Positions 4,092-61,378 of a DNA stretch of 64,000 bases are shown piece after piece. The stretch spans positions 1-64,000 of IMG/VR virus record IMGVR_UViG_3300012209_000005; one strand, 5' to 3'. How positions within the stretch are numbered: position 1 is the stretch's first letter; each line of letters begins with the position of its first letter. The translations under genes were made by a program, and so were the position numbers. The notes beneath the pieces were generated by a model. It did no database searches. It was not told the origin of the DNA and saw only the letters and a program-made list of their open reading frames with translations. The DNA is from a virus.

Positions 4092-4319
4092 TCAGCTGCT
4101 CTGCGCCCGCACCTGCTGGACGATGTACTCCGCCACCTTCCGGTGCGCCTCGGTGAGGGTGTCATCGTCGGTGATCATCTGCAGCCATGCGTCAAGCTCG
4201 TGCGCTTTCACCGGCTCGCCCGTATCGGGGAAGGTGGGCATGTACACGTCGTAGTCCTGCTGGACCCAGGGAAGCGGAGCTTCGCTCCCCCAGATCCCTC
4301 CGTTATCTGGATGAGTCAC
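4092..4319 (-). CDS. hypothetical protein
   Basis: 75 aa ORF coupled to neighbours. Confidence 0.55.
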   Translation of the reverse strand: MTHPDNGGIWGSEAPLPWVQQDYDVYMPTFPDTGEPVKAHELDAWLQMITDDDTLTEAHRKVAEYIVQQVRAQSS

Positions 4320-5029: not shown

Positions 5030-8002
5030 TCACCGGGGCACCTCGCAGGTGTCATTGCTGCAGCCGCTCTCGCCCTCGGCCTCGGGCAGCCTCCCGTCGC
5101 GGTAGAGGGATTCCCAGTCGACCGGGCGGATGCTCTCCCGCAGCTGCTCCCAGTGCTCGCGGGAGACACGCTGGTAGGGGGCCTGCTCGTAGGTGCCCTC
5201 GGCCATGGGAAGGAAGGAGATCGTCTTGAACTTGCCGTCGAAGGCGCGGAGCACCGCGGGGATCTCCTTCATCTCTTCCGCGCCGAAAGTCACCGTGCAG
5301 CTCACCGCGTTATCGCTCCACCATTCCTGGCAGTGCGCCGCCAGTGCCGCCTTCTCCCAGATGGACACGTCGCGCTCGCTGCGCATCTGCGGGCCCTCCA
5401 CCGGCAGGGTGATCACCACGGTGGTATCCGGGTCGGAGACGCTGGGCTCCACCGGGTAGCCAGCAGCCGCCATCACTGCCGCGAAAGGAGAATCCTTCAT
5501 CTCCCGTACCGTCCGCACGTAGAACCCGGACTCCCTCGGCCAGTGGACCCCCGGGGTCACCCCCCACAGCAGGCTCACCGTGCCGCTCGGCTTCACCGTC
5601 GTCACCCGGATGCTCTCCCGGATCCCCAGCCACTCGCTGTAGATCCCGTCCCACCGGCGCACCTCCGCATAGCCCTTGTCCTGCCAGCGCCGTAGCTCCG
5701 CCCAGCCACGGTCCTCCGCGAACTGCGCCACGCCTGTCATCGACGTGCCGATGCGCCTGTTGCGGATCATCACCTCATTGGTTTCCGGCCACCGGGTCAT
5801 CAGCAGAGTGACCGTCTTCCCGTACAGGTAGGCGAACTTCAGCGTGCGCAGGTAGTCCTGGAGGTCGGTGTGACGGGAGGGGAAGGTTTCCACCAGGCAG
5901 CACATCTCGTTGTCTTCCAGCGGTTGCTCGCTGCAGTTCGAGACGTTCAGGCCACCGGACCAGTAGGTGTGGCTGGTGCCGTCCACGGTGATATCCCAGA
6001 CCTCGTGCTCACCCAGGAATTCCACCTCGGTTACGTTAAATGACCTATCGGGGGTACCCGTGTCGCTGCGCACAGTGTCCTGCAGCTTCTCCGTCTTATA
6101 CTGCTGGATGAAGCCGATGATCTCCGCGAAACGCAGGACATCTCGTGCCCGGCCGATGTTCACGTCGTAGGATTCGCGGGACTCGTAATCCCCGTTCGGC
6201 CACTGGATGCGCGACGGCTTATTCGTCGTGTAATACGAGGCGATGCCAAGAGCGGACAGGGAAAGCTGGACGCCATCGCGTATCGCGGGCGAGGTAGTCT
6301 TGAAGGTCACGCGCCCGCGCACGACCGACCCGTTGGCGGAGTACAATCCGCGCAGCACCGAGGCATCCCCCAGCAGCCCGGCCGGGAGAGCGCGCTCAGG
6401 CAAGCGGGCCAGGTTGCTGCCGTCGATAACCGGCTCGACCCTCCACTGACGGTCAGTACCATGCCGGCCGGAGATCAGGCCGGCGATCTCGCTGCTGAAA
6501 TAGTCCTGGTCATGCTCGCCGATGCACAGGACGTGGTAGGGGTTGCCGTTCGTGACGTGAATGTACCCGTCGCCCAGCAGCAACCCGGCGAGCACCTTCT
6601 TAGGGTCGTGAGGTGTCGCCTGAAGGCCGCCGCGCAGCCGGTCGACGGACTGGGCGTCGCGAAGCTCGACTTTCATGCCGCCGGATACGACGCGGTGGTT
6701 CTCCGTGGCGTCCACGTAGCCCGCCGTCGTCCGGTAGCGGTAGACGGGCTTCACGCCCGTCGCGACCTTGCGCGTGACCTGCACCCAGCCGTCCTGGGAC
6801 CAGATGGTGTCACCCGCCTGGACCTCGCCCATCACGGCGATGCCATCCGGGGTGATCAGGGAAGCCCATGCAGGCTGGCACGGGTTGAGGCCAACCGTGC
6901 GGTACTCCTTGTCATCAGGCGGGTCAGCGAGCCTGCCGCGGCTCGCGGCGACCCCGTTCCAGTACAGTCCGGGCTCCCCGTTGAGCGCGATCCGCGGGAC
7001 CAGGAACGAGTAGTCGAGGCCCACGTGGGCGTAGACGGAGTTGTTGCTCAGGTGACCCCAGCCGTCCCGGCCCATCCGCATGGGGTTCTTGCCCCAGTCC
7101 TTCAGGTCCAGGAAGTCCTCGTCATCCGGCTGGCCCAGGGCGATCTGGGCGCTGCGCCTCACGTTCGCCGACACCACGCACTTCCCGATCATGTTCATGA
7201 TGTCGGTGACATCGGAGCTGGTCAGCGGCTGGCCTTCGCGGTTCCGCAGCAGCCCCACCAGGTGCGCGTGCAGCTTCACCAGCGGCTGCGGCCCCGCCGC
7301 GGTCCCCCCGAAAGTCCTGATGGGCGCCCCGGCGGGGCGCACCTGCGAGTAGTCGAAGATCGGGAAGTCCTGCGACGGCGTAAGGAACGCGCGGAGCAGG
7401 CTGGCGGTCGCCTCGCACCAGCCTTCCCTGCTGTCCGCTACTACGTGCGGGACGAACCGGCGGGCGCCAGGGGACAGCGGGTCATTCAGGGTGATCTTCC
7501 CGGCGCCCAGGGTGTCGAAGCCCACGCCCACCCCGAGCATCGACATATCCATCATCCGGGCGAACGGGCGGGCCGGGTCCTCCAGGTCCGCCATTTCCAG
7601 GGTGGACAGGAACGCGCAGGACTGCAGGGCACTGGAGTCACCCCGTCCGTTGACCAGCTCGGTGCCCATCATCCACAGCCCCCGCCCCGGAGGGGACCAC
7701 TTGCCGGCGAACGCCCGGGTGTAAGCCTCCTCCGCGCTCTCGTGTGCCTGCAGCTCATTCCAGGGCAGGCAGTAGCGGGCCGCGTGGTCCTTCTGGATGG
7801 AGTACATCCCCTCGATGACACGGCGGAGACCCTCCCAGAAGTGCTCGCGGGTACCGTCGGGCTTGCGCCGGGAGTACTTGGTAATCCAGCTGTGCTCGCC
7901 GAGGGTATTGCCTGCGCCCATCGGGAAGCCGAAGTCGGGACGGCGGTTCTCGTAGCCGCGAAAGAAGCTCTCCCGCATCCGGTAGGAAAGGTAGTCAGGC
8001 AT
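5030..8002 (-). CDS. nrdJ: class II (B12-dependent) ribonucleotide reductase, intein-containing
   Basis: SPPGRGLW, LQSC, GVGVGFD, NVRRSA, split NP/CSEQ active site, CCLVE, TTVKPSGTVS, C-terminal CxxxxC. Confidence 0.93.
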   Translation of the reverse strand: MPDYLSYRMRESFFRGYENRRPDFGFPMGAGNTLGEHSWITKYSRRKPDGTREHFWEGLRRVIEGMYSIQKDHAARYCLPWNELQAHESAEEAYTRAFAGKWSPPGRGLWMMGTELVNGRGDSSALQSCAFLSTLEMADLEDPARPFARMMDMSMLGVGVGFDTLGAGKITLNDPLSPGARRFVPHVVADSREGWCEATASLLRAFLTPSQDFPIFDYSQVRPAGAPIRTFGGTAAGPQPLVKLHAHLVGLLRNREGQPLTSSDVTDIMNMIGKCVVSANVRRSAQIALGQPDDEDFLDLKDWGKNPMRMGRDGWGHLSNNSVYAHVGLDYSFLVPRIALNGEPGLYWNGVAASRGRLADPPDDKEYRTVGLNPCQPAWASLITPDGIAVMGEVQAGDTIWSQDGWVQVTRKVATGVKPVYRYRTTAGYVDATENHRVVSGGMKVELRDAQSVDRLRGGLQATPHDPKKVLAGLLLGDGYIHVTNGNPYHVLCIGEHDQDYFSSEIAGLISGRHGTDRQWRVEPVIDGSNLARLPERALPAGLLGDASVLRGLYSANGSVVRGRVTFKTTSPAIRDGVQLSLSALGIASYYTTNKPSRIQWPNGDYESRESYDVNIGRARDVLRFAEIIGFIQQYKTEKLQDTVRSDTGTPDRSFNVTEVEFLGEHEVWDITVDGTSHTYWSGGLNVSNCSEQPLEDNEMCCLVETFPSRHTDLQDYLRTLKFAYLYGKTVTLLMTRWPETNEVMIRNRRIGTSMTGVAQFAEDRGWAELRRWQDKGYAEVRRWDGIYSEWLGIRESIRVTTVKPSGTVSLLWGVTPGVHWPRESGFYVRTVREMKDSPFAAVMAAAGYPVEPSVSDPDTTVVITLPVEGPQMRSERDVSIWEKAALAAHCQEWWSDNAVSCTVTFGAEEMKEIPAVLRAFDGKFKTISFLPMAEGTYEQAPYQRVSREHWEQLRESIRPVDWESLYRDGRLPEAEGESGCSNDTCEVPR
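5936..6880 (-). mobile_element. 315-aa intein with LAGLIDADG endonuclease in nrdJ
   Basis: Starts C1 (CQPAW), block B ATENHRV, LAGLLLGDG and LRGLYSANG motifs, block F VWDITV, ends VSN followed by extein Cys (CSEQ). Confidence 0.92.
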
Positions 8003-9459: not shown

Positions 9460-10202
9460 TGATGACCACCGCCCCGAGCACCCGCGCCAGCAGCCGCAGC
9501 GCTTTTCGAATGGGCAAGCTCACCGTTCCTGCGCTGCAGGAAGTCCTCCAGGGCGACGGTCTCCCCGCCGCCGAGGATCTTCTCCTTCAGCAGGCCCGCG
9601 ACGCCCGCCGCCTTGTAGAGGGCGCGCAGCGAGGCCACGTCCGGGGCCCCCTCCGCCGCCTTCAGGAACTCCTGCGGGGTTTTCAGGTCAGCGAAGGCCG
9701 CCTTCTTCGCGGGGGAAGCGGAGTTTCGCTCCCCTGCGGATGCGCGCGGAGCAGGGGCCGCCTCGCGCGCACTGCGCTCGAAGCTGCTCTCATCCGGGTC
9801 CGGGTCGGTGGTCGGCAGGTTGAGCACCTGGAGAAGGGCGATCCGGTAGGCGACGCTCATCCCCTTGGCGATAGCCTTGTCCCCGGAGTCCATCGCCTCG
9901 CTGACCACGGTCGCCGAGACGTGATCCCCGGCCGGGCCGTAAAAGCGGTAGGCCACCGTGAGGACCACGTGCGCCATCGGGGTGCGCTTGCTGCCGATCT
10001 CCACCGTCTCGTACCGGGAGTCCAGCACCTCGGGTACAGTGATCACGCCCTGCGCGTTCAGGTGGGGCGCCGCCGCGTTCACCACCGCGTCCACGCCGCG
10101 GAAGCTGAAATTCTGCATCGTGTTCCGCTGGTCTTTCCCGACCGCGCCGACTTCCCGCTTCACCGCTGCGAGGGCATGGAAAATAGAAGGCAGGTCCGCC
10201 AT
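9456..10202 (-). CDS. ERF-family single-strand annealing protein
   Basis: VGKDQRN..Q.FSFRGVDAV, EAMDSGDKA..K.MS.AYR.AL, DPD. Confidence 0.85.
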   Translation of the reverse strand: MADLPSIFHALAAVKREVGAVGKDQRNTMQNFSFRGVDAVVNAAAPHLNAQGVITVPEVLDSRYETVEIGSKRTPMAHVVLTVAYRFYGPAGDHVSATVVSEAMDSGDKAIAKGMSVAYRIALLQVLNLPTTDPDPDESSFERSAREAAPAPRASAGERNSASPAKKAAFADLKTPQEFLKAAEGAPDVASLRALYKAAGVAGLLKEKILGGGETVALEDFLQRRNGELAHSKSAAAAGAGARGGGHQ

Positions 10203-11322: not shown

Positions 11323-12380
11323 CCCTTGCCCGCCCCCGAGTCACGGAAGGCGGGGATGGAGACCGCCTGGCCGTAGCCGTCGCGGACATCAGCGGCGCGC
11401 AGTGCCTCCCGCTGCTCCTTGATGACCTGGTTGAGCTTATCCACGGTCAGGTTGAGCATCCGCAGGTGCTCCTCCACGTACCGGGGGTCCAGCTCGATGG
11501 CCACGCCCGGGTCCTTCTCGACGATCGCGAGGGTGGTGTGCAGCCGCTGGCGCAGCTTGCCGCCGAAGTTGTCGTGCCGGCGGACCGCCTGGCGCAGCCG
11601 GGGGCCGTAGTCCGCGGCTGCCTGCGCCACGCACGCCAGCTTATCCTCATCCGAGGTCAGCTTCGACAGCGCCCGCAGCAGGTCCTCCAGCTCCTTGGTG
11701 GACAGGTTCGAGTCGCGCACCAGCTCCGCGACCGACCGCATCACCGGGTTGTTCAGCTGCTGGGACTTCCAGCCGAGCTTCTGGACGTGGCTGGGCTTCA
11801 GCCCGTCCGTGACCTTGATCCCCAGGTTGGTCAGGCGGGCCATGCCCTTGTCCTCGGCGAGGACGGAGGACACCTGGGACTCGGTGATGTTCAGGTCGCC
11901 GGCGATCTGCTTGACGGACTTACCGTCCTTGTTGAGCTGGCGGACCAGGTGCGCGTTCTGCGTCTTCGGCATGCTCAGCCCGTGCTTGTTGTTCAGCGCG
12001 GCACCCAGCTCAAGCATCTGCCGGCGCTGGGATTCGGTCGCGTCCTCGTGCGCGATCCTGATCCTGAACTGCGGAATGATGGACAGCCCCGCGTCGAGCG
12101 CGCCGCCCACCCGGTTGGCCCCGTCGATGCCCAGCCCGTCGATGGTCACGACGACCGGGGGGACGGGGCGGCTGCGCAGGTACGCGGCCTTGTACTTCTT
12201 GATCTGCATCGGCAGCGCGAACTGCGCGATGTCCCTGACCTGGAGCCAGCGCTCCAGGGAGGGCATGCGCCCGTCGGGAACGAAATCCCAGGGCAGCCCG
12301 TGCATCTTGATCTCGGCCAGCACCTCGCCGGCCTCGGGGTATGATGCCAGGACCCTCTTCTCATCCTGCCAAATCTGCAT
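11319..12380 (-). CDS. ParB/Srx-like N-terminal domain protein with HTH
   Basis: PPVVV....IDGANRVGGA..G...IP resembles ParB box II; GKSVKQIAGDLNITESQVSSVL HTH. Confidence 0.6.
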   Translation of the reverse strand: MQIWQDEKRVLASYPEAGEVLAEIKMHGLPWDFVPDGRMPSLERWLQVRDIAQFALPMQIKKYKAAYLRSRPVPPVVVTIDGLGIDGANRVGGALDAGLSIIPQFRIRIAHEDATESQRRQMLELGAALNNKHGLSMPKTQNAHLVRQLNKDGKSVKQIAGDLNITESQVSSVLAEDKGMARLTNLGIKVTDGLKPSHVQKLGWKSQQLNNPVMRSVAELVRDSNLSTKELEDLLRALSKLTSDEDKLACVAQAAADYGPRLRQAVRRHDNFGGKLRQRLHTTLAIVEKDPGVAIELDPRYVEEHLRMLNLTVDKLNQVIKEQREALRAADVRDGYGQAVSIPAFRDSGAGKG

Positions 12381-12924: not shown

Positions 12925-13183
12925 ACCGTCTCCTTTCCCGGACGTCCATGCCCCCCCAGATGCCCGTGCAGTCGTAGGCGATGGCGAACTCCAGGCATTC
13001 CAGCCGCACCGGGCATCCCCTGCAAACATCCCTGGCGGCGCCTGCCCGGTCTTTCTCGCCGGTGACGCCTTTTCCCTCGCGCGGCCCCCCCAGGTTCTCG
13101 CGGGGGAAAAACAGGTCGGTGCTCATGCCGTGGCACGCGGCCAGGTCTTGCCACATCATACGGTTAATTGTATAAACCCTCAT
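12905..13183 (-). CDS. whiB: WhiB-family Fe-S transcription factor
   Basis: W...AAC.....LFFP...A..VC.GCPVRLECL..A......GIWGG....ERR. Confidence 0.93.
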   Translation of the reverse strand: MRVYTINRMMWQDLAACHGMSTDLFFPRENLGGPREGKGVTGEKDRAGAARDVCRGCPVRLECLEFAIAYDCTGIWGGMDVRERRRYARDHG

Positions 13184-13231
13184 TCTCCGGGGGGGCCGCG
13201 AAACGCGCTCGGAATGGGCCGGGGAAAGGAC

Positions 13232-13435
13232 CTACGCGGGCACCGACAGGACGAGGCGGCTGATCTCGTCGCCGGTCTTGTCCTTCAGCACCAGCAGGGC
13301 GATGATCATGTCCTGGGCATCGTCCGTGCTCAGCCCGGCGAGGAGCGTGACCACGGCCTCGATGTCCCGGCGCGTCCAGTGGGTGATCAGTACTGCAGCG
13401 TGCCTCAGGGCGGGCTCTCCGACAGGAGCTTCCAT
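13232..13435 (-). CDS. hypothetical protein
   Basis: 67 aa ORF with GAGG RBS. Confidence 0.45.
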   Translation of the reverse strand: MEAPVGEPALRHAAVLITHWTRRDIEAVVTLLAGLSTDDAQDMIIALLVLKDKTGDEISRLVLSVPA

Positions 13436-14914: not shown

Positions 14915-15492
14915 TGGCGCTTATCCCGGAATGCCCGGAGGGCAGCGGAGCTGCGCTCCCCATACGGACTTTCGCGGACCTCCAGCGCGCCGTCGCCAGG
15001 GCCCCGTACGACCGCGCCGCCGCTGTCGCGGTCCGGGACTTCATGGCGCAGGCGCACTATCACCGGCAGGTGACCAGGGAGGAGGCGGTCGCCCTCCCTC
15101 CCGGGGTTCACTTCACCTTGCACCAGCGGGTCGGGGACGAGACCAAGGACATCTACCTCAGCCATGTCCGCGAGATGTTCGCCGGCGGGTTCATTGACCC
15201 TGACGAGCGCGACGCCAGGATAGCCGCGCTCATGCTCGCGCGCACGAGGGAGGAGATGGACTTCCTCATCCAGGACCTCCCGGGGATAGCGAAAGAACTG
15301 CCGCCGCCGCCACCAGCGGGACAGGAGTCTCCCCGGCCCCTGCTCGCCTTCCTGGTCACCCTGGCCAGCGGCCTGGGCGCAGCCGCGGTACTTGCCGGCG
15401 GCACAGGCACCGGCAACCTGGCGGGCTTCATCGTCCTGCTCATCATCGCCGTCACCTCCGCGGCCCTGTGGGCCGCGTCCCTCGGGAAGTAA
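14914..15492 (+). CDS. DUF1707(SHOCT-like) membrane protein
   Basis: RVGD......L......G.ID.DE...R....ARTR.E...L..DLP plus two C-terminal TM helices. Confidence 0.7.
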   Translation: MALIPECPEGSGAALPIRTFADLQRAVARAPYDRAAAVAVRDFMAQAHYHRQVTREEAVALPPGVHFTLHQRVGDETKDIYLSHVREMFAGGFIDPDERDARIAALMLARTREEMDFLIQDLPGIAKELPPPPPAGQESPRPLLAFLVTLASGLGAAAVLAGGTGTGNLAGFIVLLIIAVTSAALWAASLGK

Positions 15493-17738: not shown

Positions 17739-17992
17739 TGAGCAGGAAGGGCACGACGCTGGAGGTACGCACGAAACGCAGCGGGGTCCTCCCTGCGTTC
17801 GGCGTGCTCATCGGCGGCGGCGTTATCATCGACTACGACGCAGGGCACTGGCACCTGCTTCATCACCTGTTCGGCAGGTTCAGCTTCATCATCGCGCTGG
17901 CGGTGATCATCGCGCTCACTGCCGCCGTGGCGAAAATCTCCCAGCGCCCGGCGGGATACGCAAAGATCAGCAGCAGGAAGGAAGAACAGTAA
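17735..17992 (+). CDS. small membrane protein
   Basis: 85 aa, hydrophobic, translationally coupled. Confidence 0.6.
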   Translation: MMSRKGTTLEVRTKRSGVLPAFGVLIGGGVIIDYDAGHWHLLHHLFGRFSFIIALAVIIALTAAVAKISQRPAGYAKISSRKEEQ

Positions 17993-18147
17993 TGGGACAT
18001 GTCATCGCAGGCTGCGGGGCCGGAATCAGCCAGGACTGCGCGCGTTACGCAGCCGCAGGCTGGACGGGCGGGGGTATCCTGCTCGGGGTCATCATCCTGG
18101 TCATCATCGTCGTCGCCGTCGCGTTCGCCAGGCACAAGCGCGGTTGA
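17992..18147 (+). CDS. small membrane protein
   Basis: 51 aa with one TM helix. Confidence 0.55.
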   Translation: MGHVIAGCGAGISQDCARYAAAGWTGGGILLGVIILVIIVVAVAFARHKRG

Positions 18148-18172
18148 CGCCTCCCGCTGGATGGTGTACCGT
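18144..18172 (+). promoter_or_regulatory. HrdB/sigma70-type promoter upstream of the tRNA island
   Basis: TTGACG-17nt-TACCGT. Confidence 0.5.
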
Positions 18173-18379
18173 AGGTGGCATGACCTCCACGTGCACCATC
18201 CAGCGCCACCACCCCGGGCAGAGCCCGCGGGGGGCATGGTTCGGGCACGCCTTCAGCAAGCCTGAGGGACCGCCTGGGTAAGCCGAGAGACAACGGACAC
18301 CCAGGGGCTCCTCCGAGAAAAAGCCGGCGAAACCGGTTGCGGAGGGGCCCTTGCAGTTGATACAAATACATAGGTACAC

Positions 18380-18450
18380 GGGGATGAAGCCAACGGCAGG
18401 CCGGAAGCCTCCAAAACTTCTCTGATCAGGTTCGACTCCTGACATCCCTG
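18380..18450 (+). tRNA. tRNA-Trp(CCA)
   Basis: Cloverleaf; loop CTCCAAA; T-arm tcagg-ttcgact-cctga; A at position 8. Confidence 0.8.
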
Positions 18451-18619
18451 CGGATCACCACCGGGCAACCGGGGAATGTGACTGCGATCCTGGTAACACC
18501 GGGGTCATGTTGAGAACTGCATAAGCTACAGGCCGGATGGCTGGCGACTAGGGAATGCACTGTGCATGAGCGGTAGTTGAACGCTGTGCATTGGTGTCCG
18601 AGGCTTCCATCCGGCTCGT

Positions 18620-18694
18620 GGGGACTTAGCTCAGCCAGGTAGTAGCTCCTGCTTTGCATGCAGACGGTCGCGGGTTCAAATCCCGCAGTCTCCA
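18620..18694 (+). tRNA. tRNA-Ala(TGC)
   Basis: G3:U70, loop TTTGCAT. Confidence 0.88.
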
Positions 18695-18707
18695 CTTGTA
18701 AACGCCA

Positions 18708-18780
18708 GGGGATATAGCGCAGCTGGTAGCGCGTCTCGGTCGCATCGAGAAGGCCCGGGGTTCGAGTCCCCGTATCTCCA
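18708..18780 (+). tRNA. tRNA-Ala(CGC)
   Basis: G3:U70, tctcg-GTCGCAT-cgaga. Confidence 0.9.
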
Positions 18781-19288
18781 CGGTTTGACAGATAGAAACG
18801 AAGCTGATAGCTTGTTCTTACTGCATGTGCTGGGTCCGCCAGATTGGCGCAGACCAGCTGTCTGGGGGAGCAAAGCTCCGCTTCCCTGGGGGAGCGAAAG
18901 CTCCCCTCCTGCCTCGGTGGTGGAACGGAACACGCTCCCTCGCAAGGGGAGAGATTGGCAGTATCGAGTCTGTCCCGAGGCTCAACCCCGGTCGTCTAAA
19001 GAAGATGCCTCCCCAACGGGGGAGAGGATGCCAGTGTCGAATCTGGCGCGGGGGCAAAGGCTGGGCCCGCGGCTCAGCCTAGGTGGTGCCGGAATAACCC
19101 TACGCGCAGGCTGGGGGTAACGGCAGTGCACGGCTAGAGCAAGGCAGAGTGCAATCGCATGAGCCGAGGGAGTGAGCACGCTCCCGGCTAGCCAAGGGTA
19201 GCAACCGGTGTACGGGTGTTCGCGTATTGTTATAGGCAACTCTGTGCCGCGAACTTGAGGGTAGCCAAACCCCTCCCACCGACCACAT

Positions 19289-19361
19289 GGGGCTTTAGCT
19301 CAGCTGGTAGAGCACCTGCATGGCATGCAGGGGGTCACGGGTTCGAGTCCCGTACGCTCCA
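19289..19361 (+). tRNA. tRNA-Ala(GGC)
   Basis: cctgc-ATGGCAT-gcagg, G3:U70. Confidence 0.9.
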
Positions 19362-19362
19362 C

Positions 19363-19521
19363 ATGAAAGGTAAGGCTAACCCGAAAACCCGGTCGGCCCT
19401 GATAAAGCCGCACGGGGAAGCCAGGAAAGACACCTGCCCGACATGCGAGAACGGGAAGCGGCGCAGGGTGGAAGACTGCAGCCTCTGCCAGGGCGGGGGC
19501 TGGGTGTGGGTCAGCGAGTGA
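19363..19521 (+). CDS. small Zn-finger protein
   Basis: CPTCENG...CSLCQGGG (DnaJ-like CxxCxGxG). Confidence 0.55.
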   Translation: MKGKANPKTRSALIKPHGEARKDTCPTCENGKRRRVEDCSLCQGGGWVWVSE

Positions 19522-19534
19522 AAAGGATGCGGAA

Positions 19535-19717
19535 ATGGCACGGTTCATCGCTATCGCCTGCCTCGCCGGCGGGGGAGCATGCGCAGCCTATGACATAGGC
19601 GTGAGGCACGTGCCCCTCACCGGGTGGCATGTCGACTCGCTGCAGGTCGTCGGATGGGTCCTGGTGGTCACCGGGATCATCGCCGCGGCGACGATCAAGC
19701 CTAAGGGGCTGAAATGA
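19535..19717 (+). CDS. small membrane protein
   Basis: 60 aa, two hydrophobic segments. Confidence 0.55.
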   Translation: MARFIAIACLAGGGACAAYDIGVRHVPLTGWHVDSLQVVGWVLVVTGIIAAATIKPKGLK

Positions 19718-19808
19718 AGCGGTCGGATCTCATCTTCTACACCGTGGCGGCAGCGCTGGCGCTGGCGTTCATCGTCCTGGTGTTCACGGGTCACATCAAT
19801 CCGAGCAG

Positions 19809-28421: not shown

Positions 28422-28508
28422 GGAGAGTTCGCCTAGTCAGGCCGATGGCGCTGCCTTGGAAAGGCAGTAAGGGTAACACCTTCACGAGTTCGAATCTCGT
28501 ACTCTCCT
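28422..28508 (+). tRNA. tRNA-Ser(GGA)
   Basis: ctgcc-TTGGAAA-ggcag, variable arm. Confidence 0.9.
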
Positions 28509-28509
28509 C

Positions 28510-28592
28510 GGAGCGTAAACCGGACAGGCGTGCCGGGCTCGCCTCGAAAGCGATGCAGCCTGCGGGCAGCGGTTCAAGTCCGCTGCGCTCCT
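28510..28592 (+). tRNA. tRNA-Ser(CGA), atypical D-arm
   Basis: loop CTCGAAA; agcgg-ttcaagt-ccgct. Confidence 0.8.
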
Positions 28593-28780
28593 CCGTGACC
28601 AGGAAGCCGGTGCTCCAGTGATGTGGTTCTTGATCCTCACCGTCGTCATTATCACGGTCCCGTACCTGATCCTGTTCTTGGCCCACCCGGGAAGCGAAGA
28701 CGAAACCGTGACCGCGCGTAAGGGGAGGAGACGGTGATGCGCCAGGAGGACCCTGCCGCTGGTCGCGTTCGGTACCCCGG

Positions 28781-28864: not shown

Positions 28865-29213
28865 CTGGAAGCGCAGCTTCGCTGCCCATGCGATCAGGAA
28901 GGAGAACTATGCCTGACGACTGGACGTGCGCGTACTGCCAGGAGCGTCTTTTCCTGGGCGTAAGCGGGGAGTGGGTCGGGCAGCGTTCCCTAAGGCGCTG
29001 CAGGAAAAGCCCTGACCTGGCGCATCACCTTGAGAAGAAGGGGAACCAGTGAGCGGAAGTGACGATGCCTGACGCGACATGCACCAGGACGTACTGCGGG
29101 TGCACGTGCCCGCCATGCCGGCACGCACGACGGAACAGGGACGACGCCCATGCCGACCATTGCGGCCGGCATGCCAGGGACTGCCACTGGATCCGGTGCG
29201 CAGGGTGAACCAT

Positions 29214-31492: not shown

Positions 31493-31521
31493 TTGACATC
31501 GGTACCCGCAGGGCATAAGCT
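31493..31521 (+). promoter_or_regulatory. HrdB/sigma70-type promoter
   Basis: TTGACA-17nt-TAAGCT directly upstream of tRNA-fMet. Confidence 0.7.
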
Positions 31522-31533
31522 TTAAACACACGA

Positions 31534-31608
31534 CGCGGAGTGGCGCAGTTCGGTAGCGCGCTGGGCTCATAACCCAGAGGTTCGCAGGTTCAAATCCTGC
31601 CTCCGCAA
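31534..31608 (+). tRNA. initiator tRNA-fMet(CAT)
   Basis: C1:A72 mismatch and three G-C pairs in the anticodon stem (ctggg/cccag). Confidence 0.9.
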
Positions 31609-32356: not shown

Positions 32357-32438
32357 GGGGATGGATAAGGGTTCGACTAACCTGTAAAACCGCATGTCGG
32401 AACAGGTCAGGACAGGCGTTCGATTCGCCTCATCTCCA
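32357..32438 (+). ncRNA. minimal tmRNA: tRNA-like domain only, no tag reading frame
   Basis: GGGGATG..GGTTCGAC 5' end, helix-2 acctgt/acaggt, GGAC, T-arm aggcg-ttcgatt-cgcct, CATCTCCA; G3:U70. Confidence 0.75.
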
Positions 32439-32516
32439 CTAGTTGTGACGCGAAGCGTCATGACGCTTTAGCCCGGGGTACTGAAAGGCGCTCACCCACC
32501 TGATGTCCCCGGTACC

Positions 32517-35368: not shown

Positions 35369-35440
35369 GGCGGTATGGCCGAGCGGCCCAGGCACGCGAC
35401 TGCAAATCGCGTCACGCGAGTTCGACTCTCGCTTCCGCCT
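35369..35440 (+). tRNA. tRNA-Cys(GCA)
   Basis: cgcga-CTGCAAA-tcgcg, U73. Confidence 0.9.
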
Positions 35441-35457
35441 CTCACGGAATACCATTT

Positions 35458-35533
35458 CGGCCTGTAGCTAAACAGGATAAAGCACCCGCCTCCTAAGCGG
35501 GAGATCATGCCCGTTCGAATCGGGTCAGGCCGG
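35458..35533 (+). tRNA. tRNA-Arg(CCT)
   Basis: cccgc-CTCCTAA-gcggg. Confidence 0.88.
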
Positions 35534-35723
35534 CGCACCAGTGAAACGAAAGAAGGTGAGACACGTGCACATCGGACATTACGTGAAGGACATCCTGGAG
35601 ACGGTCGCGCTCGTCGGCGCGCTCGTCGGCTTCGTCATCGGGCTGGTCACCGCCCGCATCGCCGGCAAGATCCGCCGGCGCAAGTCCCGCTGACGGGCTG
35701 GCTTTCCGGCTATCATCTGAGAA

Positions 35724-39258: not shown

Positions 39259-39678
39259 TTCTCCGTGCACGTTGCGCACCACTTGGTGTCCGTGAAAACC
39301 GGGCACCAGCTTCCGCAGCGCCAGCAGTAGTTAACCATCACACAGGCCTTCGGGGATACTATGATCACACCCGCAGGGACGCCTGCAGCTGCGATGCCAG
39401 GATGCGGACAGCACCAGGATACCGTGGGCGAACCCCGGGGGGAGCGCAGCTTCGCTGCCCGGGGGAGGATCAACAGGGATCTCGTCGAGGAGCATCACCG
39501 CGACCTGGCAGTAGCGACAGGTTACACCGCCCTGTCCCACCTTCCTGAAATGCACCACAGGAGCAATCCTATGACCGTGAACAGGGTCCACGACCACGCG
39601 CCGTGGTGGATGTTCCAGGCGTTGAAGATGACGGCCAGGGCGAACGAGATGATGGCGAGCAGGTGAACCACATGCCTC

Positions 39679-60643: not shown

Positions 60644-61378
60644 CTACATGGTGGTGAGCCTCTCGATGACCTGCGCCTTCGTGCCCTTGTCGGAGACGCC
60701 GCGGGTGCGGGCCATCTTCTTCAGGGTGGCGATGTGCAGGGTGCCGAGGGGCAGGGGGGGAAGCGCAGCTTCGCTACCCGGGGTCTCGATGACGCCACCC
60801 TCGTTTTCAGGAAGGGGCAGGGACAGGTCTTCGGCAGCGCCGATCGCGGCAGCCGTATCCCGCTGCATCATGGGCATCCCGCATTCGCCGCAGAACTTGA
60901 CGCCCCCCGGGTTGTCGTGCCCGTTCGCGCAGATGGTGGTGCCCTTGATGATGCGCTGGTCGAAGTTCTGGCTGAGCAGCCAGAAAGCCTCGTCGGGGAT
61001 TTTCAGCCCCGCGGACTGCAGTGCCGCCAGCGCGGAAAGCTGCTGCAGCTGCTGGGAACCGCGCTCGGCGCGGACCTTGTTGACATGCTGCTCGTCCGGG
61101 GTCGCCGGGATGCCCTCGGGGGTACTCGACCAGTGCGGGTCGGAGTCCGCGACATGCTCCATGCGCGAGGGGATGCCCTGGTCCTTGTCCCCGGGGATCA
61201 CCTTGATGATCCGGGGCTTCCCGTCACCGCGCAGGTACGATTCGCAGGGGTCGCAATCCAGTTTCCAGACTTTCGCCGGGGCTCCCCGGGTCACGGGTCG
61301 GGAGTGGACATTGCCACACCCTCCGCTCCCCCCGGGAATGGAAACGCTCATCAGGTCTGAGCGTGCGTACAGGGACAT
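60644..61378 (-). CDS. hypothetical protein with Zn ribbon and C-terminal SAP domain
   Basis: C.NGH.N....KFCGECG; LHIATLKKMARTRGVSDKGTKAQVIERL. Confidence 0.7.
   Translation of the reverse strand: MSLYARSDLMSVSIPGGSGGCGNVHSRPVTRGAPAKVWKLDCDPCESYLRGDGKPRIIKVIPGDKDQGIPSRMEHVADSDPHWSSTPEGIPATPDEQHVNKVRAERGSQQLQQLSALAALQSAGLKIPDEAFWLLSQNFDQRIIKGTTICANGHDNPGGVKFCGECGMPMMQRDTAAAIGAAEDLSLPLPENEGGVIETPGSEAALPPLPLGTLHIATLKKMARTRGVSDKGTKAQVIERLTTM

Follow-up and report, generated by a model that had tools for sequence, protein, structure and literature searches.

GOLLD and ROOL are structured non-coding RNAs that often occur in phages beside tRNA genes. At the border of other RNAs, tRNA-like elements such as mitochondrial t-elements or the mascRNA end of MALAT1 recruit RNase P and RNase Z. 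The manA motif (RF01745) was described as a probable cis-regulator located in 5' untranslated regions (5' UTRs; Weinberg et al. 2010, PMC2864571) and has been a functional orphan since 2010. In 2026, manA was reported to build RNA-only cages, in the form of a pentamer-based decamer or 60-mer, with assembly seen by cryo-electron microscopy (cryo-EM) in marine and Photobacterium members (bioRxiv 10.64898/2026.07.01.735769). Here, we describe a manA-type RNA in a 64,000-nucleotide (nt) stretch of viral DNA (hereafter, the window), which makes up the first 64 kb of the IMG/VR virus record IMGVR_UViG_3300012209_000005 (115,415 bp, 93% complete, ~65% GC). We consider it likely that positions 19058-19285 (+) encode a ~228-nt, strongly diverged member of this known family within a tRNA operon, and that the surrounding region, in which an initial annotation had seen one ornate RNA of ~840 nt (18451-19286), belongs to the polycistronic tRNA operon of a soil-type phage and is composed of several units.

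Identity and structure of the manA-type RNA

A permissive scan of positions 18000-19800 against all 4227 Rfam families, at expectation values (E) up to 10, aligned the segment to the whole of RF01745, from model position 1 to 192 of 192. The match reached 47.4 bits (E = 1.3e-10 for the 1.8 kb searched and 2e-12 for the 115-kb genome, in which it is the sole RF01745 match). A covariance model of our own, built from 32 marine manA sequences only (model R1), found the same place as its sole match in the window (27.2 bits, E 1.6e-7, model positions 1-201). When the RF01745 search was run through the same pipeline on 49 other phage records, mostly of high GC content (median GC 0.67), chosen via their neighbouring NlpC/P60 gene and without a tRNA array beside that gene, no match was obtained at E ≤ 0.1. 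GOLLD and ROOL gave no match in the Rfam scan, and at about 230 nt the window RNA differs in size from those RNAs (500-800 nt). The initial annotation was right in kind, in that a structured non-coding RNA lies within a phage tRNA cluster; its suggestion of a GOLLD-like identity did not hold, nor did its extent of ~840 nt.

Besides its full-length alignment and phage origin, the window RNA shares with manA the P1 hairpin, the junction-closing helix, the arms P3, P7 and P8—the last with its GGGUA...AA.CCC hairpin—and the junction motifs GUG.C.GAAUAA and UAA.G. All junction motifs of the model (GUG.C.GAAUAA, UAA.G..A, UGCC and UG) are present, at 19086-19097, 19118-19125 and 19245-19257. The closing helix, already noticed in the initial annotation as a long-range pair of ggtgg with ccacc, turned out to be a true, covarying helix: GGUGG/CCACC differs from the consensus GGGAG/CUCCC by two compensatory pairs. 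When folded, the 231-nt manA segment gave z -1.84 if read from the + strand but +0.09 if read from the - strand; this asymmetry and the lack of coding capacity described below lend further support to the assignment.

The window RNA departs from described members in several respects. Its P6 hairpin, which canonically carries an ACCA loop, is deleted, and the invariant GGUGGUG loop of P4 is replaced by a 48-nt insertion; these two loops are mutually complementary and occur in 72 of the 75 marine manA RNAs fetched. Its GC content is 63%, and it scores 47 bits as compared to 169-180 bits for marine controls (n=4). It probably stems from an actinophage, not from a marine cyanophage or a gamma-proteobacterium, and the element sits between tRNA-type elements, with a tRNA following after 3 nt, rather than in the 5' UTR of a protein gene; a tRNA directly downstream is, however, a trait of some marine members as well.

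Relatives in Streptomyces phages and the packing with tRNAs

No cultured close relative of the phage was found. It is probably an actinophage, since its helicase and NlpC/P60 proteins have their best matches in Streptomyces phages; a phage relative, P0002, with a 74% identical NlpC/P60 protein, is found on a 136-kb contig (Logan/ENA). Streptomyces phages were tested because of the shared NlpC/P60 domain, and sub-threshold, full-length RF01745 matches emerged in BRock (49.7 bits), LuckySocke (47.8 bits; identical in Alone3), Annadreamy (45.2 bits) and Wakanda (39.1 bits). By blastn, pSt2308 and GiJojo contain RNAs 82% and 79% identical, respectively, to that of LuckySocke. None of these manA-type RNAs is annotated in its record (Table 1). 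They measure 158-246 nt and lack the 5' domain, with compact forms in BRock and Annadreamy (158-164 nt; 164 nt in BRock), and P4 and P6 are absent or rebuilt in most of them. Like the window RNA, they score 39-50 bits, below the RF01745 threshold, and they share its core helices, in which compensatory changes have occurred; the window RNA is nearer than they are to the marine consensus in its GAAUAA and in its P8 loop.

We aligned the window RNA and four of the Streptomyces-phage RNAs to the marine-only model and counted its 36 pairs. In this alignment, which favours structure because it was fitted to the model and which comprises few sequences (n=5), standard pairs fill 97% of the pair cells, as compared to 69.5% after shuffling and 38-50% when partners are displaced. 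Both sides differ in 20 of the 36 pairs, and none of the five measures is attained by any of 500 shuffles. Pairing is complete (100%) in the closing helix, P7 and P8 of each of the five RNAs, with changes on both sides in four of the five pairs of the closing helix and in 9/11 pairs of P7 and P8. As an illustration, the closing helix reads GGGAG/CUCCC in marine members, GGUGG/CCACC in the window, GAGAG/CUCUC in LuckySocke and Wakanda, and GGGUA/UACCC in BRock. Covariation among relatives, a check that the initial annotation had proposed for the entire region, is found for the manA part (five RNAs) and not for the 5' half, for which no relatives could be retrieved.

Similarity at blastn level between the window RNA and the Streptomyces-phage RNAs was nil, and blastn and megablast searches against 50,697 phage records returned tRNA matches only. 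IMG/VR scans with exact or degenerate patterns (core, 3' hairpin, T-arm of the tRNA-like modules A and B described below, hairpin repeat), with protein and with a protein alignment recovered only canonical marine manA, coding sequences and chance matches. Scans of metagenomes (JGI) and GTDB genomes for relatives of the window RNA gave chance matches only.

In every actinophage copy a tRNA precedes the start of the RNA by 3-6 nt, and in most of them another tRNA follows its end at 0-7 nt. The upstream tRNA is a tRNA-Lys(CUU) in LuckySocke, pSt2308, GiJojo and BRock, and a tRNA-Gln in Wakanda and Annadreamy. In the window, the tRNA-like module B takes the place of the upstream tRNA, ending 4 nt before P1. 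The Streptomyces-phage RNAs thus resemble the window RNA in lying within a tRNA cluster, but are flanked by genuine tRNAs (Lys/Lys or Gln/Trp) instead of tRNA-derived modules. Among marine members, four IMG/VR contigs (L113, L074, L055 and L017) carry manA RNAs of 169-180 bits followed by a tRNA-Asn or tRNA-Gly (Rfam): in L113 the two are contiguous, and in the group of L074, L055 and L017 they are 2, 7 and 13 nt apart. The L074 contig also harbors a glutamine riboswitch ~400 nt upstream of its manA RNA. We considered a tRNA-like module upstream of marine manA RNAs as a general feature and rejected it: a T-arm occurs within 250 nt in 3/75 loci only, and all three are real tRNAs.

This layout suggests a route by which the RNA would be made. 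The transcript would be that of the tRNA operon, or one begun at the promoter-like site (18785-18813). The host enzymes that mature tRNA 3' ends (RNase Z or exonucleases) would act on module B and thereby fix the 5' end of the RNA, while RNase P at tRNA-Ala(GGC) would define its 3' end. Because module B and tRNA-Ala(GGC) flank it at 3-4 nt, with tRNAs in comparable places in the relatives, we infer that the RNA would be excised from the tRNA precursor, yielding a free-standing RNA made together with tRNAs rather than a 5'-UTR switch. The 'embedded tRNAs' of the initial annotation are, accordingly, better described as neighbours in a precursor than as parts of one fold. Modules A and B would most likely be processing handles, or else decaying tRNA copies.

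Other units of the locus

The tRNA array comprises ~41 tRNA genes at 18.4-35.5 kb of the window (ARAGORN, Rfam). Within it, the gap 18782-19288 (~506-507 nt) is non-coding, as had been claimed: its open reading frames (ORFs) show flat GC by codon position (0.60-0.67), as compared to a third-position GC (GC3) of 0.80-0.90 in the genes beside it. As a whole, the 507-nt gap folds better than dinucleotide shuffles (z -3.36; 0/100 shuffles as stable), also in line with the annotation; its 5' half gives z -2.37, and single parts of the gap and of the spacer further upstream give modest values of -1.5 to -2.9. Nothing points to one RNA of ~840 nt that would wrap around a pair of tRNA genes. Instead of two tRNA-Ala genes we count three, along with an ARAGORN 'tRNA-Cys' call within the gap, and the remainder of the 840 nt falls into separate units: besides tRNAs and tRNA-derived modules, there are a spacer hairpin and several copies of a hairpin repeat dispersed through the genome (Table 1). 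The ATG of a small zinc-ribbon ORF begins directly behind tRNA-Ala(GGC).

Most hairpins read off the sequence in the initial annotation are there, at the positions it gave to within ± one base: ggggagc-GAAA-gctcccc (18889-18906), ctccc...gggag (18935-18951), ctcccc-aacg-ggggag (19009-19024), aggctgggc/gctcagcct (19058-19080) and gttcgcg/cgcgaac (19218-19224 and 19248-19254). The hairpin given as gaggggt/acccctc exists (19257-19275), with gaggg/ccctc as its actual stem. The segments cgccagatt (18837-18845) and aatctggcg (19040-19048) are likewise present; their long-range pairing lacks comparative support and competes with the T-arm of module B (19030-19047) and with a local hairpin (18837-18849).

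Table 1. Positions of the features described at the locus, of the dispersed repeat, and of manA-type RNAs in GenBank records.
Feature	Position	Strand	Basis or remark
Spacer with 84-nt hairpin closed by GCCGGAUGG/CCAUCCGGC (18532-18615)	18451-18619	+	Minimum free energy (MFE) -68 kcal/mol, z -2.29, 5/200 shuffles as stable
tRNA-Ala(UGC)	18620-18695	+	ARAGORN; Rfam tRNA 54.8 bits
tRNA-Ala(CGC)	18708-18781	+	ARAGORN; Rfam tRNA 63.6 bits
Promoter-like TTGACA-17 nt-TAGCTT	18785-18813	+	Pattern count; in AT-rich patch 18782-18830 (43% GC vs 65% genome)
Two local hairpins, CGCCA-GAU-UGGCG and CAGAC-CAGCU-GUCUG	18837-18864	+	Direct reading, MFE
Two tandem repeat copies, consensus GGGGAGCGAAGCTCCGCTTCCC	18865-18906	+	Second copy with GAAA loop; tandem pair folds with z -2.94
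tRNA-like module A, cloverleaf	18911-18983	+	ARAGORN tRNA-Cys(GCA)
tRNA-like module B, four-arm cloverleaf (18986-19053)	18984-19057	+	Folds as cloverleaf on its own
P1 hairpin	19058-19080	+	RF01745 alignment
Junction-closing helix GGUGG/CCACC	19082-19086 / 19276-19280	+	RF01745 alignment
Conserved GUG.C.GAAUAA loop	19086-19097	+	RF01745 alignment
UAACGG	19118-19123	+	RF01745 alignment
Arm P3	19126-19130 / 19209-19213	+	RF01745 alignment
48-nt two-hairpin insertion in P4	19136-19183	+	RF01745 alignment, constrained fold
P7 GUUCGCG/CGCGAAC	19218-19224 / 19248-19254	+	RF01745 alignment
P8 hairpin GAGGG-UAGCCAAAC-CCCUC (GGUA...AA.CC loop type)	19257-19275	+	RF01745 alignment, constrained fold
tRNA-Ala(GGC)	19289-19362	+	Starts 3 nt after manA-type RNA; ARAGORN; Rfam 60.8 bits
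Small ORF, 52 aa, two CxxC pairs (zinc-ribbon type)	19363-19521	+	GC3 0.81
GGGGAGCGAAGCTCCGCTTCCC repeat, window	4269-4290(-), 9713-9734(-), 14940-14961(-), 18865-18886(+), 28866-28887(-), 39439-39460, 60758-60779(-)
GGGGAGCGAAGCTCCGCTTCCC repeat, genome outside window	86423-86445(-), 87355-87373(-)
Unannotated manA-type RNAs, GenBank	OR725497.1 12931-13163; OR725492.1 ~13113-13345
Unannotated manA-type RNAs, GenBank	KX925554.1 101081-101244(-); NC_048719.1 65460-65617
Unannotated manA-type RNAs, GenBank	NC_070785.1 66234-66468; PV588686.1 ~28466-28712; PP725410.1 ~12100-12341

Two tRNA-like modules precede the manA-type RNA. Module A has 7/7 acceptor pairs (GCCUCGG/CCGAGGC), a UCGCAAG loop with C for U33, a 5-bp T stem with an 8-nt T loop (UAUCGAGU), and U as discriminator; the true tRNA-Cys of the array lies at 35369-35441 (ARAGORN, Rfam). 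Module B combines a 5-bp acceptor stem, a D-type arm and a 5-bp T stem with an 8-nt T loop (UGUCGAAU), and has the capped stem CUCCCC-AACG-GGGGAG for an anticodon loop. As modelled, both present a cloverleaf with the acceptor stem stacked on the T arm, the minimal shape of an RNase P or RNase Z substrate. The Rfam tRNA model (RF00005) matched neither of them at E up to 10. Aligned in the same register, modules A and B form a tandem duplication (local score 30 as compared to 14.1 ± 2.3 for shuffles, 0/1000 of which reach it), and module B resembles the tRNA-Arg(CCU) at 35458-35534 (score 29). Judging from these features, the modules are tRNA-derived elements. They are akin to t-elements, mascRNA and YrlA in being tRNA-shaped, not competent for decoding, and placed at the border of another RNA, so far as can be read from the DNA.

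Ro proteins bind tRNA-like Y RNAs, which in bacteria include the YrlA RNAs (Chen et al. 2014, PMC4201824). The sole match to the YrlA model (RF02553) covers true tRNAs at 18642-18767 and, with 28.4 bits, falls short of the gathering score of 69. The phage encodes a Ro60-like TROVE protein (G000:C1:90396-90743(-), at ~90.4 kb; 43.7 bits, ORF of 719 aa), its gene being 71 kb from the manA-type RNA. TROVE genes occur in 10/13 large Streptomyces phages tested, and in LuckySocke, pSt2308, GiJojo and BRock one lies just upstream of the tRNA-Ala/tRNA-Lys/manA/tRNA-Lys cluster. A partnership of the Ro60/Y-RNA kind was nonetheless rejected. Among 14 phages, TROVE is present in 5/7 carriers of manA-type RNA versus 6/7 non-carriers, and it is absent from Wakanda and Annadreamy, which carry the RNA; as its presence does not track the RNA, co-occurrence gives no support.

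Matches to the pattern TTGACA N16-18 TANNNT number two in the 64 kb versus 0.13 expected, and both are on the + strand within the tRNA array: one at 18785-18813, the other at 31493-31521, just before the tRNA-Met at 31534. From their sequence and placement, the two may be internal promoters of the array; a stricter sigma-70 scan does not call the site at 18785-18813. The 22-nt hairpin repeat GGGGAGCGAAGCTCCGCTTCCC has 8 copies (≤3 mismatches) in the window versus 0 expected. Its variants keep the GGAGC/GCUCC stem by changes from G-C to C-G or U-G. Copies lie between and inside ORFs (for instance, the ERF gene), most of them oriented with local transcription and one directly after a tRNA-Ser. 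It might serve as a terminator, as a processing site, or as an operator or 'stoperator'-like site. The GAAA-capped hairpin highlighted in the initial annotation is one of these copies and is therefore not specific to the locus.

The spacer at 18451-18619 lies between a weak tRNA-like element (18380-18450) and tRNA-Ala(UGC). The sequences gccggatgg (18532-18540) and ccatccggc (18607-18615), which the initial annotation had taken for a further domain of one large RNA, are present and form the spacer hairpin only. The spacer has no Rfam match and no paralog in the genome. We dismissed it as a second manA copy or paralog, as only the 16 nt before each tRNA-Ala are alike (family D19); since two tRNAs that would be cut out lie in between, nothing ties the spacer to the manA-type RNA.

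In the same array, Rfam reports a transfer-messenger RNA (tmRNA; RF00023) match at 32357-32441 with 57.3 bits, above threshold and only 85 nt long, where ARAGORN calls neither a tRNA nor a tmRNA; it may represent a tRNA-like domain alone.

Competing explanations and significance

Several points count against the assignment to manA and the processing scheme derived from it. The score of 47.4 bits stays below the RF01745 gathering score of 55.2 and far under the marine controls, and the pair counts carry the reservations given above. No close relative of the window RNA or of its 5' half was retrieved, which leaves modules A and B, the hairpins and the promoter without comparative support. Only 7/79 marine manA loci have a tRNA in reach (on the 3' side in five of these seven, within ~15 nt by a rough estimate of the ends), so the link to tRNAs is not universal. 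Processing by RNase P and RNase Z is inferred from layout. Finally, the absence of the GGUGGUG loop and of P6 weakens the transfer of cage-forming behaviour to the window RNA.

A chance match in GC-rich spacer DNA would agree with the sub-threshold score and with an MFE z score of only -1.84 for the 231-nt segment. It is, however, extremely unlikely given E values of about 1e-10 to 2e-12 across the full model length, the lack of any match in the 49 other, mostly GC-rich phage records, the recovery of the same place by the marine-only model, and relatives that share both layout and compensatory changes. We also deem it highly improbable that the region forms one large RNA of 500-840 nt whose fold takes in tRNAs, be it GOLLD/ROOL-like or a new giant class. 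The whole gap does fold better than 100/100 shuffles, its elements are packed with linkers of 2-4 nt, and the 9-bp complement cgccagatt/aatctggcg exists; yet GOLLD, ROOL and other large-RNA families had no match at E up to 10, the manA part, the tRNA-like duplicates and the copies of the dispersed repeat each have an identity of their own, the long-range pair has a competitor in the T-arm of module B, and the Streptomyces-phage relatives stand at 158-246 nt directly between tRNAs, without the 5' domain. A cis-acting role, as riboswitch or leader of the downstream tRNA-Ala and of the small ORFs from 19363, would accord with the classification by Rfam and Weinberg et al. 2010 (PMC2864571) as a probable regulator in 5' UTRs, and small ORFs do follow the next tRNA. 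We nevertheless rate this role very unlikely: tRNAs or tRNA-like modules enclose the element at a distance of 0-7 nt, both here and in every Streptomyces-phage copy, so that an expression platform would have no space; a tRNA also directly adjoins several marine copies; and a search of the + strand from 17800 to 19600 gave no terminator-like hairpin, hence none behind the element.

The part played by the 5' half invites a different question, namely whether it helps at all to produce or support the manA-type RNA. The two modules might be decaying tRNA duplicates, and the GGGGAGC hairpins terminators or operators that are there by chance. Indeed, insertions in its anticodon and T loops make module B look like a damaged tRNA-Arg(CCU), U33 is missing from module A and its T loop measures 8 nt, neither module is accepted by the Rfam tRNA model, the hairpin repeat turns up in many unrelated places including the inside of ORFs, and ordinary tRNAs occupy the position of module B in other phages. 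Against such decay, cloverleaf pairing is complete in both modules (7/7 acceptor pairs in A, four arms in B), the unusual 8-nt T loop common to both suggests a kept variant, and module B, 4 nt ahead of the RNA, occupies the very place that a tRNA holds in each of the relatives. On balance, we find an idle 5' half possible but doubtful.

If the window RNA is a diverged manA, as we favour, diverged relatives in high-GC actinophages widen the host range of the family well beyond the sea. The tRNA-bracketed layout is hard to square with the label of 5'-UTR regulator given in 2010, and fits the 2026 report of a self-assembling particle; that actinophage copies are always joined to tRNAs argues for manA as a family of free-standing RNAs, not gene switches. 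By analogy with canonical manA, the window RNA may self-assemble. Lacking the GGUGGUG and ACCA loops, it would need other contacts for any assembly, and the loss of these two marine-invariant loops offers a natural test of which contacts matter. BRock, LuckySocke, Annadreamy and Wakanda, as cultured, tractable Streptomyces phages, make the family experimentally accessible. A bolder proposal, which we consider improbable, is that manA-type RNAs constitute a pan-phage class, from marine cyanophages to soil actinophages, made in tRNA operons, cut out by tRNA-processing enzymes and tied in function to tRNA biology. If it were true, host nucleases that target tRNAs, or enzymes that handle them, could for instance be sequestered or decoyed by an assembly of the RNA, and modules A and B would be working parts of the unit, not debris.

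Two further observations stand apart from the tRNA array. At 5033-8002 (-), the window contains a class II (B12-dependent) ribonucleotide reductase gene with an internal LAGLIDADG domain, which is probably an intein. A different, apparently conserved structured RNA was seen in the IMG/VR contigs L318 (- strand around 4762), L282, L327, L312, L330, L314 and L283 (56-61% GC): an 18-bp end-to-end stem, GAAUCCUGAAAGAAGCGG ... CCGCUUCUUUCAGGAUUC, encloses ~190 nt, and the RNA ends in the hairpin GCCAGURUCGAGUCUGGC with an 8-nt loop.

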